32,000 bases of DNA from Candidatus Saccharimonadota bacterium (GTDB taxonomy: Bacteria > Patescibacteriota > Saccharimonadia > Saccharimonadales > Saccharimonadaceae). Below, piece by piece: positions 16,170-28,301 of the stretch (its first letter is position 1; every line of letters starts with the position of its first letter). A program made the translations under genes and the position numbers. A model generated the notes under the pieces. That model was not told the origin of the DNA, made no database searches, and saw only the letters and a list, made by a program, of their open reading frames with translations. The stretch lies in contig JBAQRV010000001.1 of NCBI GenBank assembly GCA_049296095.1, positions 210,001 to 242,000 of the forward strand, written 5' to 3'.

Positions 16170-16198
16170 TTGACTTATTTACCCCAATTAGCTATAAT
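16170..16198 (+). promoter_or_regulatory. rplJL promoter (TTGACT, 17-nt spacer, TATAAT)
   Basis: TTGACT at 16170-16175 and TATAAT at 16193-16198, near consensus. The leader to ATG 16399 is about 195 nt. Confidence 0.65.
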
Positions 16199-16212
16199 CA
16201 CCTCTAGACATA

Positions 16213-16326
16213 CCAAAGACAGTAGCCGCCGAGATGACATCAACGCTTAATCCGCTACCGAGGAACTGTAAAACATACATTTCTATTTAAGTCTTTGGCG
16301 ATGCGAGGTCCAAAGACTTTTTGTTT
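16213..16326 (+). promoter_or_regulatory. L10 (rplJ) leader with mutually exclusive helices and an intrinsic terminator (attenuator)
   Basis: CCAAAGAC occurs twice (16213-16220 and 16310-16317) and GTCTTTGG once (16291-16298). The 16289-16298/16310-16319 helix is followed by TTTTTGTTT, forming a terminator. The 16213-16220/16291-16298 helix excludes it. Confidence 0.6.
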
Positions 16327-16398
16327 CTCGCAAGTGCCAACAGGGCTGTCTAGCGACTTAACAATCTGGCCGAATGAATACTAACCAAGGAGATTTTT

Positions 16399-19406: not shown

Positions 19407-20903
19407 GTGTCGAGGGCATTATACCGAAAATATCGCAGCAAATCGTTGGCAGAAGTCGTTGGACAAAGCCATATCACCGACATCTTGGCACGTGCGATTC
19501 AAGCTGGGCGCATTTCACATGCCTACCTCTTGACTGGACCTCGGGGAGTTGGTAAAACCTCGGTCGCCCGTATTCTCGCCCATGAAATTAATCATCTCCC
19601 TTACAGCGACGATTCAACCCATCTCGACATCATTGAAATTGACGCTGCCAGCAACAACGGCGTCGAGGACGTTCGCGACCTGCGCGAGAAAGTCCAGATT
19701 GCCCCAGTCTCAGCCGAGAAAAAGGTCTACATCATCGACGAGGTACACATGCTATCCAAGGCGGCTTTTAACGCACTCTTAAAAACTCTTGAGGAGCCGC
19801 CAGAGCACATCGTTTTCATCCTAGCGACGACTGATGTTGATAAACTTCCAGCGACTATTGTCAGCCGAACTCAACGCTACGGCTTTCGCGCCATCACCGC
19901 GGAGGATGCGATCAAGCATTTGCGACACATTGCAGACGAAGAAAAAATTAAGATTGATGACGATGCACTGGCAGTTATCGCTCAGCGCGGTGACGGGAGT
20001 TTCCGTGATAGCATCAGCTTGCTCGATCAGCTTTCTAGTCTCACAGATAAGAAAACTGGTATTACCGCTGAACTTATCGAAGCAACCCTAGGCCTTGCCC
20101 CAGCTAAAATTCTAGACGAACTCCTCGTCGCTATTGAGGCACACGATGTTAGTGCTATCGCGGCGCTCCTCGATCAAACAGCTGCCGATGGCATCAGCCC
20201 GGTCACCTTAACCGAGCAATTAACTATCCGCCTGCGCGAGCTCATCAGCGCTAAACCCCAACTCCTACCATTACTCGATAGCCTCTTAGACGTCGCCCGC
20301 AGTAGCCAACCGGGCCTCAAACTCCTCGCATGCCTAGGTACCTTTGCCCTCGAACACAAACCCACCAAAACCGCCGCCCTCGCCACCCCCGTCCTCGAAG
20401 TCACCGCCACCATCGAACAACTCACCAAACAAGCCACAAAAATCTCTCCGAAAGTTTCTAAATCTTCAAGGGAATCTGGTGATGGAACTGCGGCTTTTCC
20501 TGAGCCTCTGCAGCCCGAGTCTGCACTGGCGCAAAGCCCAGTAAAGACCCGGAGCGAAGCCAGATCAGAAAAAGTCGCAGGTTCGGCAGCAGATTTTGTT
20601 TGGGAAGATTTAGTTAATTTTACGAAGAAAAATTATGTCGCCCTCTACAGCGTCCTCTCCAAATGCTCTCCCATTCACGAACCAGGTATCCTTACCTTAT
20701 ATACCAAGAGTGCTTTTTATAAAAAGAAGCTCGACGACGCGAAATATAGCGCCCACCTCTATGAATCACTCCAAAAACTCTGGGGTTATGAACCAACCAT
20801 CCACACCATTCCCACAGCTCCGCCACCAAGTAGTAGCCAGGCCGCCTCGGTAGCTGCTATTATGGGCGGAGGAGAAGAGGTTTCAGTCGAAGCCTCGGAG
20901 TAA
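19407..20903 (+). CDS. dnaX: DNA polymerase III subunit gamma/tau
   Basis: LYRKYRSKSLAEVVGQSHI...HAYLLTGPRGVGKTS...YIIDEVHMLS..AFNALLKTLEEPP..VFILATT...SRTQRY. GTG start with AGGGGAG SD. Confidence 0.9.
   Translation: MSRALYRKYRSKSLAEVVGQSHITDILARAIQAGRISHAYLLTGPRGVGKTSVARILAHEINHLPYSDDSTHLDIIEIDAASNNGVEDVRDLREKVQIAPVSAEKKVYIIDEVHMLSKAAFNALLKTLEEPPEHIVFILATTDVDKLPATIVSRTQRYGFRAITAEDAIKHLRHIADEEKIKIDDDALAVIAQRGDGSFRDSISLLDQLSSLTDKKTGITAELIEATLGLAPAKILDELLVAIEAHDVSAIAALLDQTAADGISPVTLTEQLTIRLRELISAKPQLLPLLDSLLDVARSSQPGLKLLACLGTFALEHKPTKTAALATPVLEVTATIEQLTKQATKISPKVSKSSRESGDGTAAFPEPLQPESALAQSPVKTRSEARSEKVAGSAADFVWEDLVNFTKKNYVALYSVLSKCSPIHEPGILTLYTKSAFYKKKLDDAKYSAHLYESLQKLWGYEPTIHTIPTAPPPSSSQAASVAAIMGGGEEVSVEASE
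20484..20584. repeat. imperfect palindromic (hairpin) element, copy A, in-frame inside the dnaX linker
   Basis: The outer arms 20485-20503 and 20565-20584 pair (19 pairs, with 1 mismatch, 1 G.T and 1 bulge). Core TCTGCAGCCCGAGT (20507-20520) and core ACCCGGAGCGAAGCC (20547-20561) are identical to those in copy B within cysS. Confidence 0.65.
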
Positions 20904-24678: not shown

Positions 24679-25677
24679 ATGTTTGATAAAGCCCGCGAAC
24701 TGATTGAATCAGCCCAAAAGATCGTTATTATCCAAGCCGAAAACCCAGATGGTGATTCTCTTGGTAGTACTTTAGCATTGGAAGAAATCCTCGGCGACCT
24801 CGGTAAGGACGTCGTCTTATACTGTGCGATTGATATTCCAAAATATATGCATTATATCCAGGGGTGGGATCGGATTGTGAAAGATTGGCCAAAAGATCGG
24901 GATCTCGCAATTATCGTTGATACTTCGAGCGCCCTTTTGATGACAAAAACCTTCGAGACAGCCGGCGTCACACACTTCATGGAGTCACACCCCGTCCTTG
25001 TGATTGATCACCACGCTGAAGTTGTAGGCGACCTTCCCTTTGAACACACGCTCGTCAACGATCTTACTTCAGTCGCAACTGGCCAGGCACTCTACAAAAT
25101 GGCTATTGAAGCGGGCTGGTCAATCAACCCTCAGGCTGCCGAGAATCTATTCTTGTCAATTCAAGCAGACAGCCTTGGCCTGACCACTCAAAATACCGAC
25201 GCTGATGCTTACCGCGTTGCAGCCGAACTGGTTGCACTCGGCGCCAACCCTTCCGTTATCGAAGGGCGACGTCGCGAATACATGAAAAAACCGGCTGATA
25301 TCCTTGCCTATAAGGGTGAGTTAATTGGTCGTATCGAATATAGCCTTGAGGGTAAACTTGCCACTGTCCATATTCCTTGGGCTGAGATCGAGCAGTATAG
25401 TGACCGCTATAATCCAAGCGTCCTGGTGCTCGATGAGATGCGGCTGGTTGAACATGTTGAAATCGCCGTTGCAATCAAAACCTACCCCGACGGCAAGCTG
25501 ACAGGCAAGATCCGCTCAAACGTGCCGATTGCTGGACAAGTCGCTGGCTTCTTTGGCGGTGGCGGACATGACTATTCGGCGGGCTTCAAAGTCTTTGAAG
25601 ACTATGACAAAATAATGACTGAATTAGTAACTGCAGTAGATAAGGCCTTGATCGATTATGAGTCTTCAATTTCATAA
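24679..25677 (+). CDS. DHH/DHHA1 family phosphoesterase (NrnA-like oligoribonuclease/pAp phosphatase)
   Basis: DGDSLGS, VIDHHA and GGGGHDYSAGF (DHHA1 GGGH) motifs. TGcTACAAT (24663-24671) ends 7 nt before the ATG. Confidence 0.8.
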   Translation: MFDKARELIESAQKIVIIQAENPDGDSLGSTLALEEILGDLGKDVVLYCAIDIPKYMHYIQGWDRIVKDWPKDRDLAIIVDTSSALLMTKTFETAGVTHFMESHPVLVIDHHAEVVGDLPFEHTLVNDLTSVATGQALYKMAIEAGWSINPQAAENLFLSIQADSLGLTTQNTDADAYRVAAELVALGANPSVIEGRRREYMKKPADILAYKGELIGRIEYSLEGKLATVHIPWAEIEQYSDRYNPSVLVLDEMRLVEHVEIAVAIKTYPDGKLTGKIRSNVPIAGQVAGFFGGGGHDYSAGFKVFEDYDKIMTELVTAVDKALIDYESSIS

Positions 25678-27196
25678 CCAACTCACCAGAACCGTTGACC
25701 CCTTCACTCCTCAAGTCGAAGGACAAGTAAGTCTCTATACCTGTGGACCGACCGTCTATGACTATCCGCACGTTGGTAACTGGTCTGGGTATATCTATTG
25801 GGACGTACTCGTGCGCACACTGCAAGCGAATGGCCTCAAGGTTGATCGTGTCATGAACATCACCGATGTGGGCCATCTAACAGGCGAGAACGAAGGTGAT
25901 GCTGATCGAGGGGAAGACAAGCTCGAAAAGGGTGCTCGTCGCGAAGGTAAAACCGCCTGGGAAGTTGCTGCTTTTTATACCGAAGATTTCATGAAGGGCA
26001 TTGAGCGTCTCGGTCTTATCATGCCAACTCACATCACTAAAGCAACCGACTACATCGACCAGCAGCTCGCCCTCGTTCGCACACTCAAAGAAAAGGGCTT
26101 TACCTACGAAATCGACGACGGTATCTACTTTGATACTGCCAAGTTCCCAACCTACGCTGACTTTGCCGGCCTAGACCTCGAAGCCCAACGCGCCGGTGCC
26201 CGCGTCGAATACAACCCAGAAAAAAGAAATCACAGCGACTTCGCTCTATGGAAATTCACCCCAGCTGGCGAAACCCGTGATATGGAATGGAAGACTCCCG
26301 ATGACTTGCTTGATTCCACATCTGTCGAAACATCTGCAGCCCGAGTTTCCGATCAGGAAACCCGGAGCGAAGCCGTTTCGTCAGATGTCGGAAGCAAGGA
26401 AGTTAGAATGGGTTTCCCAGGCTGGCATCTCGAATGCTCAGCCATGGCGATGTCACTGCTTGGTAACACTTTGGATATGCATACAGGTGGCATTGATCAT
26501 ATTCCAGTGCACCATACCAACGAAATCGCCCAATCAGAGGCCGCAACCGGCGTGATATTTAGCAATTTCTGGCTTCATAATAATCACCTCAAGGTCAACG
26601 GCACCAAGATTAGTAAGTCACTTGGAAACGGCTATACACTCGATGACCTCGAGAAAAAGGGCTATAGTCCGCTCGACTTCCGCCTCTTCGTCCTCCAAAG
26701 CCAATACCACAATGAGGGTAATTTTACGTTCGAAAACCTTGAAGCCGCCAAGAACCGCCTCCTCAACTGGCGAAATATCGCCGCTTTGCGCCACCAGACC
26801 CACGGCACACTCGATGATGGCGACGACCGATCTGTTGCGCTGTATGCAACCTCCCAAGCAATTGTTGAGGCCCTTTCAAACGATCTCGATACACCCGAAG
26901 CTTTCCGAATCATCGACGAAGCCTTCGATCAGCTTACCAATACTTCGATTGACAAGATCCATCAACACGCACTGGTGAGCGTTCTTGAAACGATTGACGA
27001 TACACTAGGGCTCCAGCTTATTACGACCACACCGGACATATCTGATGATCAAAAGCGAACTATCCTGGAACGCGAACGTGCCCGCGAGAATAGGGACTTT
27101 AAGACTGCCGACAGCCTGCGAGATCAGCTGGAAAAAGAAGGTGTCACTGTTCGTGACACCTCAACAGGTCCAATTTGGGAGTATCTTAAGATTTAG
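25658..27196 (+). CDS. cysS: cysteine--tRNA ligase with a ~36-aa insertion in the catalytic core
   Basis: LYTCGPTVYDYPHVGN (HIGH-type), PGWHLECSAM, GGIDHIPVHHTNEIAQSEA, and KISKSLGN (KMSKS). The start overlaps the upstream gene by 20 nt. Confidence 0.95.
   Translation: MSLQFHNQLTRTVDPFTPQVEGQVSLYTCGPTVYDYPHVGNWSGYIYWDVLVRTLQANGLKVDRVMNITDVGHLTGENEGDADRGEDKLEKGARREGKTAWEVAAFYTEDFMKGIERLGLIMPTHITKATDYIDQQLALVRTLKEKGFTYEIDDGIYFDTAKFPTYADFAGLDLEAQRAGARVEYNPEKRNHSDFALWKFTPAGETRDMEWKTPDDLLDSTSVETSAARVSDQETRSEAVSSDVGSKEVRMGFPGWHLECSAMAMSLLGNTLDMHTGGIDHIPVHHTNEIAQSEAATGVIFSNFWLHNNHLKVNGTKISKSLGNGYTLDDLEKKGYSPLDFRLFVLQSQYHNEGNFTFENLEAAKNRLLNWRNIAALRHQTHGTLDDGDDRSVALYATSQAIVEALSNDLDTPEAFRIIDEAFDQLTNTSIDKIHQHALVSVLETIDDTLGLQLITTTPDISDDQKRTILERERARENRDFKTADSLRDQLEKEGVTVRDTSTGPIWEYLKI
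26318..26388. repeat. imperfect palindromic (hairpin) element, copy B, in-frame inside the cysS catalytic core
   Basis: ACATCTGTCGAAAC (26318-26331) pairs with GTTTCGTCAGATGT (26375-26388): 14 bp with 1 mismatch. There is an inner stem 26341-26350/26356-26365. Core TCTGCAGCCCGAGT is at 26333-26346 and core ACCCGGAGCGAAGCC at 26360-26374. Confidence 0.7.
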
Positions 27197-28301
27197 ATTT
27201 AGCGACTGGCTTGTCGCTCAGTTCGCGCTGCTTCTTGGCATAAATGAGATACTCGTCGAGCAAGATTCGCAGTGACCCTGCAATCGGAATAGCGATAATA
27301 CCACCGACGATACCAAACATATAGAGTCCAATCGTCACTGATGCCAAGACAGCCAAAGCGGACAATTCGTTACGTTTCGACTGAATCTGTGGTGAGATAA
27401 AGTTGTTTTCAATTTGTTGATAGACAATAAAGAAGATTGCGTAGATGATGGCGGCAGGAATATTATTGAATGCCAGCAACGCAGTCACGATGACCCCACC
27501 GATAGTGGCACCAAACATAGGAATCAACGATAACACGAAGGTAATTGCAGCCGTCGTGAAGGCAAGATTGCTTGGTATAACAGGAAAGACCAAGCTCAGT
27601 ACAAACACGGCCAACCCAGCAAATGTCGCGCCAATAGCCGAGACCGTCAATTGACCGGTAATATAGCCAGTCACGACTCCATAGATACGGCTCGAGATTC
27701 GTTTATGAATTTCCATGCGACCCTTGTTGTTATACAGTCCCCACAGGCGCTGCATCCACGCAGGACCTTCAATCAACATCAAGAAGGTCAATACCAGCAC
27801 CAATAAGAGCGCTGTAAAGAAGCTAAAGATTGAGCCAATACCACTAATGACACTCTGTCCTACATTGCTCGCCCAACCAGTTGCATTGTCCTTTAGTGAG
27901 TTAAGAGCGCTGTCTACTTGAGATTGCAGACCGTATTGATCGACCACATCGCGAAGGCCATGCCACGACTGCGTCGCTGAATCAACCACAGCTGGTACGC
28001 TCTCGACAAATTTGGCAGTTTGCTGAACGATCGGTGGGATCACCAGGAAAATAATCGCACCGAGTATCGTGACAACTGCCACATAGGCAATCGCTGTCGC
28101 ACCAACCCGACTTTTACCAGGTAAACGACGTGCAATACGTCCTACTGGAGTATTCAAAGCCAGTGCCAGGAAAAGTGACGTTCCTAAAATAATCAAAGCA
28201 ACCTGCGCAGCAATAATCAAATAAATAAGCAATCCTAGCCCAATAACCACTAACCAGAATCGTACGAACGTGCGGGTATCTATTTCTAAGCGTGTTTTCA
28301 T
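27186..28301 (-). CDS. AI-2E family transporter (PerM/UPF0118)
   Basis: Eight hydrophobic segments. The C-terminal core ...FFIVYQQIENNFISPQIQSKRNELSALAVLASVTIG..FGIVGGIIAIPIAG is typical of the family. TATAAT (complement of 28309-28314) lies 7 nt before the ATG. Confidence 0.85.
   Translation of the reverse strand: MKTRLEIDTRTFVRFWLVVIGLGLLIYLIIAAQVALIILGTSLFLALALNTPVGRIARRLPGKSRVGATAIAYVAVVTILGAIIFLVIPPIVQQTAKFVESVPAVVDSATQSWHGLRDVVDQYGLQSQVDSALNSLKDNATGWASNVGQSVISGIGSIFSFFTALLLVLVLTFLMLIEGPAWMQRLWGLYNNKGRMEIHKRISSRIYGVVTGYITGQLTVSAIGATFAGLAVFVLSLVFPVIPSNLAFTTAAITFVLSLIPMFGATIGGVIVTALLAFNNIPAAIIYAIFFIVYQQIENNFISPQIQSKRNELSALAVLASVTIGLYMFGIVGGIIAIPIAGSLRILLDEYLIYAKKQRELSDKPVAKSKS

Follow-up and report, generated by a model that had tools for sequence, protein, structure and literature searches.

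A palindromic repeat family of Saccharibacteria with an invariant bulged core and in-frame copies in cysS, dnaX and other housekeeping genes

Palindromic elements in bacterial genes

Protein-coding palindromes were earlier described as a peculiarity of Rickettsia. According to the summary in PMC10969869, the Rickettsia palindromic elements (RPEs), RPE-1 to RPE-10 (Ogata et al. 2000, 2002), count 44 copies in R. conorii, and each family encodes a conserved peptide. Here we describe an element with similar behaviour in a 32,000-nucleotide stretch (the window) of a Candidatus Saccharimonadota bacterium (GCA_049296095.1, contig JBAQRV010000001.1, positions 210,001 to 242,000, forward strand): a 36-codon insert in cysS, the gene for cysteine--tRNA ligase (CysRS), with a second copy in dnaX. 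We think it fairly likely that the insert is one copy of a palindromic repeat family specific to Saccharibacteria, a selfish, RPE-like element whose core is the recognition site of a protein. [quoted passage not shown]

That note had likened the insert to RPEs, and in behaviour the likeness stands. Both are palindromic repeats of about 100-150 nt in reduced genomes of host-dependent bacteria, and both lie in frame and stop-free in unrelated housekeeping genes and also outside coding sequence. For both, the predicted place in the protein is a surface loop that the fold can accommodate, and no transposase or classical target-site duplication has been seen to go with either, in the case of the present element among the copies inspected. 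We claim a likeness of behaviour and not membership. The phylum is another one, and the nucleotide-level constraint on the core is much stronger than one would expect of plain selfish junk. Copy number is also lower in Saccharibacteria (1-4 exact cores per genome vs 44 in R. conorii), the element has a short, asymmetric core that is invariant across the class, with arms and apex that covary, and it is read in several frames and in both orientations, even at one site. That Saccharibacteria, unrelated ultra-small episymbionts within the candidate phyla radiation, show such behaviour as well suggests that it arises repeatedly where genomes are reduced and host-dependent.

Intragenic bacterial MITEs are also known, among them Coxiella QMITE1, ERIC, BOX and Correia elements (PMC5896051, PMC10969869). 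Like these, the Saccharibacteria element is small, non-autonomous and dispersed, forms an inverted-repeat hairpin (its imperfect inverted arms span 20-57 nt), and can be intragenic and in frame, as MITEs occasionally are, which can also make in-frame fusions. Unlike them, it came without target-site duplication or related insertion sequence in the comparisons made, and it conserves its centre while its arms vary, whereas MITEs conserve their terminal inverted repeats. A third group comprises the repetitive extragenic palindromes (REPs) and bacterial interspersed mosaic elements served by REP-associated tyrosine transposases (RAYTs), the ends of IS200/IS605 elements, and integron attC sites. 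All are imperfect hairpins in which, as we propose for the present element, conserved bulges and mismatches rather than stem sequence would give recognition. However, REPs are extragenic, 20-40 nt long and present in hundreds of copies, while the Saccharibacteria element is 80-190 nt long and often intragenic; attC has conserved R boxes at the stem base and sits in cassettes beside an integrase; and none of RAYT, TnpA or IntI was seen near the Saccharibacteria copies inspected, whose replication strand bias is weak. Lastly, yeast mitochondrial GC clusters and byp elements are short mobile hairpins that invade the coding genes of a reduced genome. The ribosome skips byp elements, which need not keep the frame, and phage T4 gene 60 is another example of such translational bypassing; the genic copies in Saccharibacteria, by contrast, always keep frame and openness.

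The inserts in cysS and dnaX

The cysS copy is made up as follows (all coordinates are those of the window).

25658-27196, plus strand: cysS, cysteine--tRNA ligase, 512 aa; host gene, a stop-free open reading frame (ORF) across the insert
26300-26407, plus strand: the complete insert, 36 codons in frame, DDLLDSTSVETSAARVSDQETRSEAVSSDVGSKEVR; a single long hairpin with 26302 paired to 26405
26302-26331, plus strand: 5' arm of the outer stem P1, from the fold
26332-26345, plus strand: 5' half of the invariant core, ATCTGCAGCCCGAG, containing CTGCAG; exact in 65 loci
26346-26360, plus strand: apical stem-loop P3, short type, from covariation
26361-26374, plus strand: 3' half of the invariant core, CCCGGAGCGAAGCC, containing GCGAAGC; recurs across the family
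26375-26405, plus strand: 3' arm of P1, from the fold

The cysS product matches Pfam tRNA-synt_1e and CysS_C as well as solved CysRS structures, and it goes under the name cysteine--tRNA ligase of Candidatus Microsaccharimonas sp. Against Borrelia CysRS (solved structure 3SP1), query residues 215-250, which correspond to 26300-26407, face only 2 residues, directly before the conserved GFPGWHLEC motif. This bears out the boundaries and the 36 residues given in the earlier note, whose coordinates and sequences for the insert were all found correct when the DNA was re-read. The frame from 25658 to 27196 is open throughout, as claimed. Both pairings that the note had pointed out are present, 26318-26331 (ACATCTGTCGAAAC) with 26375-26388 (GTTTCGTCAGATGT) and, inside it, 26341-26350 (CCGAGTTTCC) with 26356-26365 (GGAAACCCGG) around a GATCA loop, and so is the repeat of ACATCTG at 26318 and 26330. 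In the short P3, the GAUCA loop is closed by GUUUCC (from 26345) and its pairing partner GGAAAC (to 26361). In the 5' arm, the proximal GAAAC plus TCCACATCTGTCGAAAC is a subfamily arm common to copies in other genes, and GACTTGCTTGATTCC is similar to the basal module GAGCCGCTTGCTACC of a copy at another locus (L059).

As RNA, 26300-26407 folds with a minimum free energy of -53.5 kcal/mol, compared to -26.6 +/- 3.4 in 200 dinucleotide shuffles (z = -8.0), none of which (0/200) folded as well. With DNA folding parameters the values are similar (z = -8.1 on the plus and -7.4 on the minus strand). The comparison with shuffled controls, proposed in the earlier note, thus came out 8 standard deviations better than the controls.

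We also made the structure prediction that it had proposed as a test of whether the insert is a surface loop. An AlphaFold2 model of CysRS built with 52 homologues has a mean predicted local distance difference test score (pLDDT) of 82; residues 221-246 form a loop that has pLDDT <50 and lacks secondary structure, between strands that are modelled confidently. The model fits a disordered surface loop, located at what we take to be the junction of the connective-polypeptide domain with the second half of the Rossmann fold. The encoded peptide is rich in Ser, Glu and Asp.

The second copy that the earlier note had reported in dnaX is real.

19407-20903, plus strand: dnaX, DNA polymerase III gamma/tau, 498 aa, from ORF and Pfam
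20461-20610, plus strand: second copy, inserted in frame into the variable DnaX linker; long hairpin with a long-type P3
20507-20519 and 20548-20561, plus strand: cores of the dnaX copy, exact motif matches

The sequence that the two copies have in common is limited to TCTGCAGCCCGAGT and ACCCGGAGCGAAGCC, found exactly in dnaX at 20507 and 20547. The dnaX region folds at -67.6 kcal/mol (z = -5.2). Core-to-core spacing differs by 13 nt between the copies, and for this reason the 5' core is read SAAR in CysRS and LQPE in DnaX. With a covariance model derived from 57 members of the family, the cysS copy reaches 65.7 bits and the dnaX copy 61.2 bits, while the next match in the window has 11 bits.

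Anatomy, range and hosts of the family

We scanned one genome per species (185,579 species) for the pattern GCAGCCCGAG-N(10-40)-CCCGGAGCGAAGC and obtained 67 loci. Sixty-five are true copies, with covariance scores of 49-92 bits; the other two, in Microthrixaceae (L043) and Solirubrobacteraceae (L047), were rejected as chance pattern matches (17 and 27 bits). The recurrence of the core motifs, a check that the earlier note had proposed, is therefore a matter of 65 Saccharibacteria loci and two low-scoring chance matches elsewhere. All true copies come from Saccharibacteria or unclassified Patescibacteria metagenome-assembled genomes (MAGs), except for two high-scoring ones (66 bits) on contigs labelled Dongiaceae (L032, DATMTU010000174.1) and Verrucomicrobiia (L035, DATJIC010000057.1). 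Since the host genes on them group with MnmA and methyltransferase genes of Saccharibacteria, these contigs are probably mis-binned Saccharibacteria. Several similar copies can occur within one genome (3-4 in some), and in the human oral Nanosynbacter clade all copies found sit in the ATP synthase delta gene. In oral taxon 488 strain 106.1.1 (CP128407.1), atpH has a copy at L067 1293-1330. The core pattern had 0 matches in viral contigs and thus gave no sign of a phage vector. The element is a nucleotide marker for the class, accounts for part of the unusual insertions in Saccharibacteria housekeeping proteins, and can lead annotation and gene-based phylogeny astray.

Every copy is built on one plan, an imperfect hairpin. 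The outer stem measures 20-57 bp, with a sequence that is specific to the locus or common to a subfamily and a complementarity that is kept. The core consensus is 5'-AUCU GCA GC CCG A G / C C CGG A GC GA AG CC-3', which pairs in the order CU/AG, internal loop GCA/GA, GC/GC, bulged A, CCG/CGG and A.C mismatch, and its asymmetries (the 3x2 internal loop, the bulged A and the A.C mismatch) are fixed. The apical stem-loop is of a short type (12-15 nt between cores, as in cysS) or a long type (28-31 nt, as in dnaX), and P3 varies in sequence among copies while keeping its pairing. Across 57 distinct copies, 80.7% of cells form pairs, compared to 65.4% in column shuffles and 27-46% with partners slid, and 298 double-change cells are observed where 117 are expected. 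Individual P3 pairs (25-55 to 29-51) occur in up to 6 pair types, with 14-28 double changes at each. RNAalifold independently finds the core helix and P3. Compensatory changes reach the core itself: CCG/CGG becomes CCA/TGG in one locus (L012), and a G-C pair becomes A-U in dnaX orthologues. The invariant, asymmetric core suggests a trans-acting protein that recognises the folded hairpin, as in the REP/RAYT, IS200/IS605 and attC systems. K-turn, loop E and bulge-helix-bulge motifs were considered for the core and discarded, as by inspection the consensus does not fit their rules.

One subfamily (L005, L024, L045, L059, L069 and L010/L034/L049/L044/L052) conserves another module as well, which lies some 30 nt outward of the core and reads (T)AGAGCCGC in the 5' arm and G(G)CGAAAAGGCGAAC in the 3' arm; the cysS copy carries a diverged version. 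Counting this module and the core together, GCGAA appears three times in the 3' arm and AGCC twice in the 5' arm, a repetition that is possibly that of a protein-binding unit. The GCGAAGC of the 3' core half is known as an unusually stable DNA mini-hairpin. The palindrome CTGCAG of the 5' half, at window 26335-26340 and 20509-20514, is the recognition sequence of PstI.

Out of about 70 copies, 46 fall within stretches that are free of stops over at least 150 aa (36 sense, 10 antisense), and most of these were confirmed to be within real genes. They cover at least 15 gene families, three sense frames and the antisense. Pfam-confirmed hosts are TopA, MnmA, Dus, TsaD, LeuRS, ATP synthase delta (AtpH) and DnaX, with Fpg, a pseudouridine synthase and methyltransferases as further confirmed hosts, and antisense copies are hosted by AlaRS, an RNase HII-UPF0102 fusion, TatD and an ABC-F ATPase. 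The core is translated in sense as SAAR..RSEA, LQPE..PERS, LQPE..RSEA or LQPE..PGAK depending on the gene, and in antisense as GFAPG..RAAD or ASLR..RAAD. Two hosts have domain arrangements that deserve mention. One antisense-copy host (L042) is a fusion of RNase HII with a UPF0102 (YraN-like) domain, and its inter-domain linker holds the element; a copy-hosting LeuRS (L064, 2027-5026) has a NUDIX domain (PF00293, residues 423-544) inserted after the editing domain.

These translations decide on whether the insert might be a lineage-specific protein insertion selected for its amino acids, with an incidental hairpin. Its Ser/Glu/Asp-rich peptide does resemble many linkers and does lie in a loop. 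However, the frame and orientation in which these nucleotides are read change from gene to gene, and even within CysRS orthologues, and their third codon positions are conserved. Frame and orientation thus refute a protein insertion; the earlier note had argued from the second copy in dnaX for a nucleotide-level element and not a protein domain. A chance hairpin is countered by the fold (z = -8), and an assembly artefact by the identical cysS sequence found in an NCBI MAG (GCA_049286885.1) and in an independent Logan assembly, and by the presence of the family in dozens of genomes. We give this whole group of explanations practically no weight. An intein was also considered and dismissed, 36 residues being too few.

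About 25 copies are intergenic, many between convergent genes and without orientation preference (about 5:4). Assuming genomes that are about 90% coding, this share exceeds the roughly 10% expected, as it should under purifying selection on genic insertions. Intergenic copies carry stops: on average 1.6 of 6 frames are open, equal to shuffles. Hence the element is not intrinsically stop-free outside its core, pre-adaptation to coding is ruled out, and the open frames of genic copies reflect selection after insertion.

The same comparison bears on the idea that the hairpin never reaches the protein, being either excised from the mRNA like an intron, by stem cleavage and ligation, or bypassed in translation. 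The long hairpin would indeed juxtapose the flanks of the host gene, and the insert interrupts the catalytic-core region of an essential enzyme. Yet all 46 copies in stop-free stretches keep the frame, which would be needless if they were removed, while intergenic copies have stops; ten genic copies are antisense, in which an RNA signal could not match; and the distance from core to hairpin base varies from 20 to 57 bp, which leaves no fixed cleavage geometry. No ribozyme or intron family matched in Rfam at E up to 10, where the element region gave only sub-threshold miRNA-like hairpins, and AlphaFold2 accommodates the insert as a loop. Because genic copies are always in frame and open, unlike intergenic ones, and because antisense genic copies exist, we regard removal or skipping as highly improbable.

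Site dynamics and constraint on the core

The history of single sites is best seen in CysRS, for which we measured the segment from DFALWK to GFPGWH in 108 close orthologues (70-84% identical). Sixty-eight are empty, with segments of 24-29 aa (mostly 26 aa), while 24 carry the element in sense, 5 in antisense (peptide SETASLR...TRAADVS) and 11 a remnant of intermediate length that has lost the core. The presence/absence comparison of cysS orthologues, which the earlier note had put forward, therefore yields 68 empty alleles and 40 that are filled or remnant. Filled alleles have segments of 47-66 aa, and about half of them show mutated cores or internal deletions. Filled states are scattered on a neighbour-joining tree and require 22 parsimony changes.

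Other genes show the same turnover. A single site of MnmA holds a sense copy in one locus (L032) and an antisense copy in another (L063), with arms from different subfamilies. In TopA there are two alternative sites, and a lineage in which one is filled has the other empty. The lengths of DnaX orthologues run from 462 aa (empty) to 534 aa, and empty and filled alleles both exist. In one MAG, about 140 nt are common to copies at three loci (L011, L029 and L031).

Other recurrent peptides (EETKSEVQ... and ...VPxRASQAPQAEQSSPVERP...) also occur at the cysS and dnaX sites, in CysRS orthologues P0093, P0097 and P0103 and in DnaX orthologues P0128, P0130, P0135-P0137, P0139, P0144, P0157, P0160 and others. 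The exact-core pattern misses them; they seem to be additional families of this kind of element or cores that have diverged strongly.

From these data a mechanism can be proposed for a selfish element. It would spread as DNA without a transposase of its own, a trans-acting protein recognising the bulged core on an extruded hairpin or cruciform. Survivors would be the insertions with an open frame in tolerant surface loops, the tolerant site of CysRS being the loop just before the PGWHxEC motif, and there the element would be translated as a disordered loop rich in Ser, Glu, Ala and Arg. Recombination from arm to arm may flip the core, and copies would erode through internal deletions.

Several observations weigh against this proposal. 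All cysS insertions lie at exactly one site, which means either one ancient insertion followed by many clean losses or a strong site preference. No target-site duplication is visible between empty and filled cysS alleles, among the three copies of one genome or at the two TopA sites, although divergence limits the power of these comparisons. No transposase or candidate enzyme was noticed beside the copies inspected, most copies' neighbours being unannotated. The number of exact cores is low, at 1-4 per genome of about 0.9 Mb. Retention of the insert in mRNA and protein is itself a prediction.

The remaining difficulties come from third codon positions. In four dnaX orthologues their identity is 0.38-0.49 in the ATPase domain, 0.48-0.57 in the C-terminal domain and 0.41-0.55 in the linker flanks, and it rises sharply at the boundary, to 0.89-1.0 over the 18 codons of core and P3. 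In all four copies the arms, though homologous, have diverged with compensation and are still paired. Between the window cysS and an 84%-identical orthologue, identity is 0.48 outside the insert, 0.83 over its 36 codons and 0.94 in core and P3, the excess being limited to residues about 221-250. Synonymous sites are saturated in both genes, and around the conserved core third-position identity in cysS and dnaX orthologues gave no trace of transferred flanks or of a conversion tract. Judging from these alignments, either the core is under purifying selection on nucleotides or it is much younger than the species splits. Such conservation in situ is hard to explain by selfishness alone.

The bulged core and its covarying hairpin may then, as a tentative alternative, form a functional module that is selected at each locus as the docking site of a Saccharibacteria protein. 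If true, this would amount either to hairpin-guided spread of DNA without a transposase or to a shared regulatory or replication signal within ORFs, and the module would sit inside essential genes such as those for aminoacyl-tRNA synthetases, DnaX, TopA and ATP synthase delta. A core conserved beyond saturated synonymous sites makes the matter testable in cultivable, transformable strains: which protein reads the hairpin, and for whose benefit.

Because the core is conserved in situ at orthologous sites, a host-level function is the main rival that we keep, though we judge it unlikely. The hairpin would be a structured module (RNA, single-stranded DNA or cruciform) that a Saccharibacteria protein binds or processes, for example an operator that acts post-transcriptionally, or an RNase site, common to a set of housekeeping mRNAs, or else a site for replication or chromosome organisation, and its presence within ORFs would be tolerated since the function acts on the nucleic acid. 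A core and asymmetries invariant across the class, with covarying helices, are the classic signature of a functional structure. The third-position contrast (89-100% identical in core and P3 vs 38-57% in dnaX and cysS), its sharp boundary without a flanking conversion tract and the diverged yet paired arms of orthologous dnaX copies point the same way. So do the very few degenerate copies in 500 kb around matches and the more than 30 DnaX orthologues that keep the element as the only conserved island of the linker. Yet the element is dispensable at each locus, being absent from 68 of 108 CysRS orthologues, and half or so of the filled alleles there are damaged in core or interior. Genic loci are roughly 14 sense to 5 antisense, both orientations occur at one site and intergenic copies are about evenly split; an orientation that is not fixed argues against a function of the sense RNA. 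The set of host genes varies by lineage, and no Rfam family matches the element. Orientation relative to replication offers little more: pooled skew suggested a bias that the within-locus control leaves weak, with 19:12 copies by third-position GC skew (GC3, p = 0.11) and 22:9 by third-position AT skew (AT3, p = 0.002).

In a large clade (L073-L076 and the more than 30 DnaX orthologues just mentioned), the only conserved island of the hypervariable linker is a core variant, CCCTGGAACCCGAG...ACCCGGAGYGAAGCAG with peptide TLEPESIPVLKQRETRSEAVS; the dnaX variant core is also written CTGGAACCCGAG...GAGYGAAGCA. Covariation can be read even in its peptide (ES..T, EL..A, EP..A and EA..P). The sole inverted pair of copies (L012) was considered as a REPtron-like arrangement and rejected, as it flanks priA and a small zinc-finger-like ORF and not a transposase.

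Within single 8 kb loci (L003-L069), the GC3 skew of genes on one strand is 0.2-0.5 away from that of genes on the other. These differences imply a strong compositional asymmetry between strands in Saccharibacteria genomes, which could serve to map the direction of replication. In the window, a scan for tRNA and tmRNA genes found none, and at gathering thresholds Rfam 15 has a single match, nothing relevant to the element: the ribosomal protein L10 leader (RF00557, 50.1 bits) at 16195-16332, upstream of rplJ/rplL. The 5' end of cysS shares 20 nt (25658-25677) with the end of an upstream DHH-family ORF (24679-25677), and downstream an AI-2E transporter gene (27186-28301, minus strand) shares 11 nt with its stop end.

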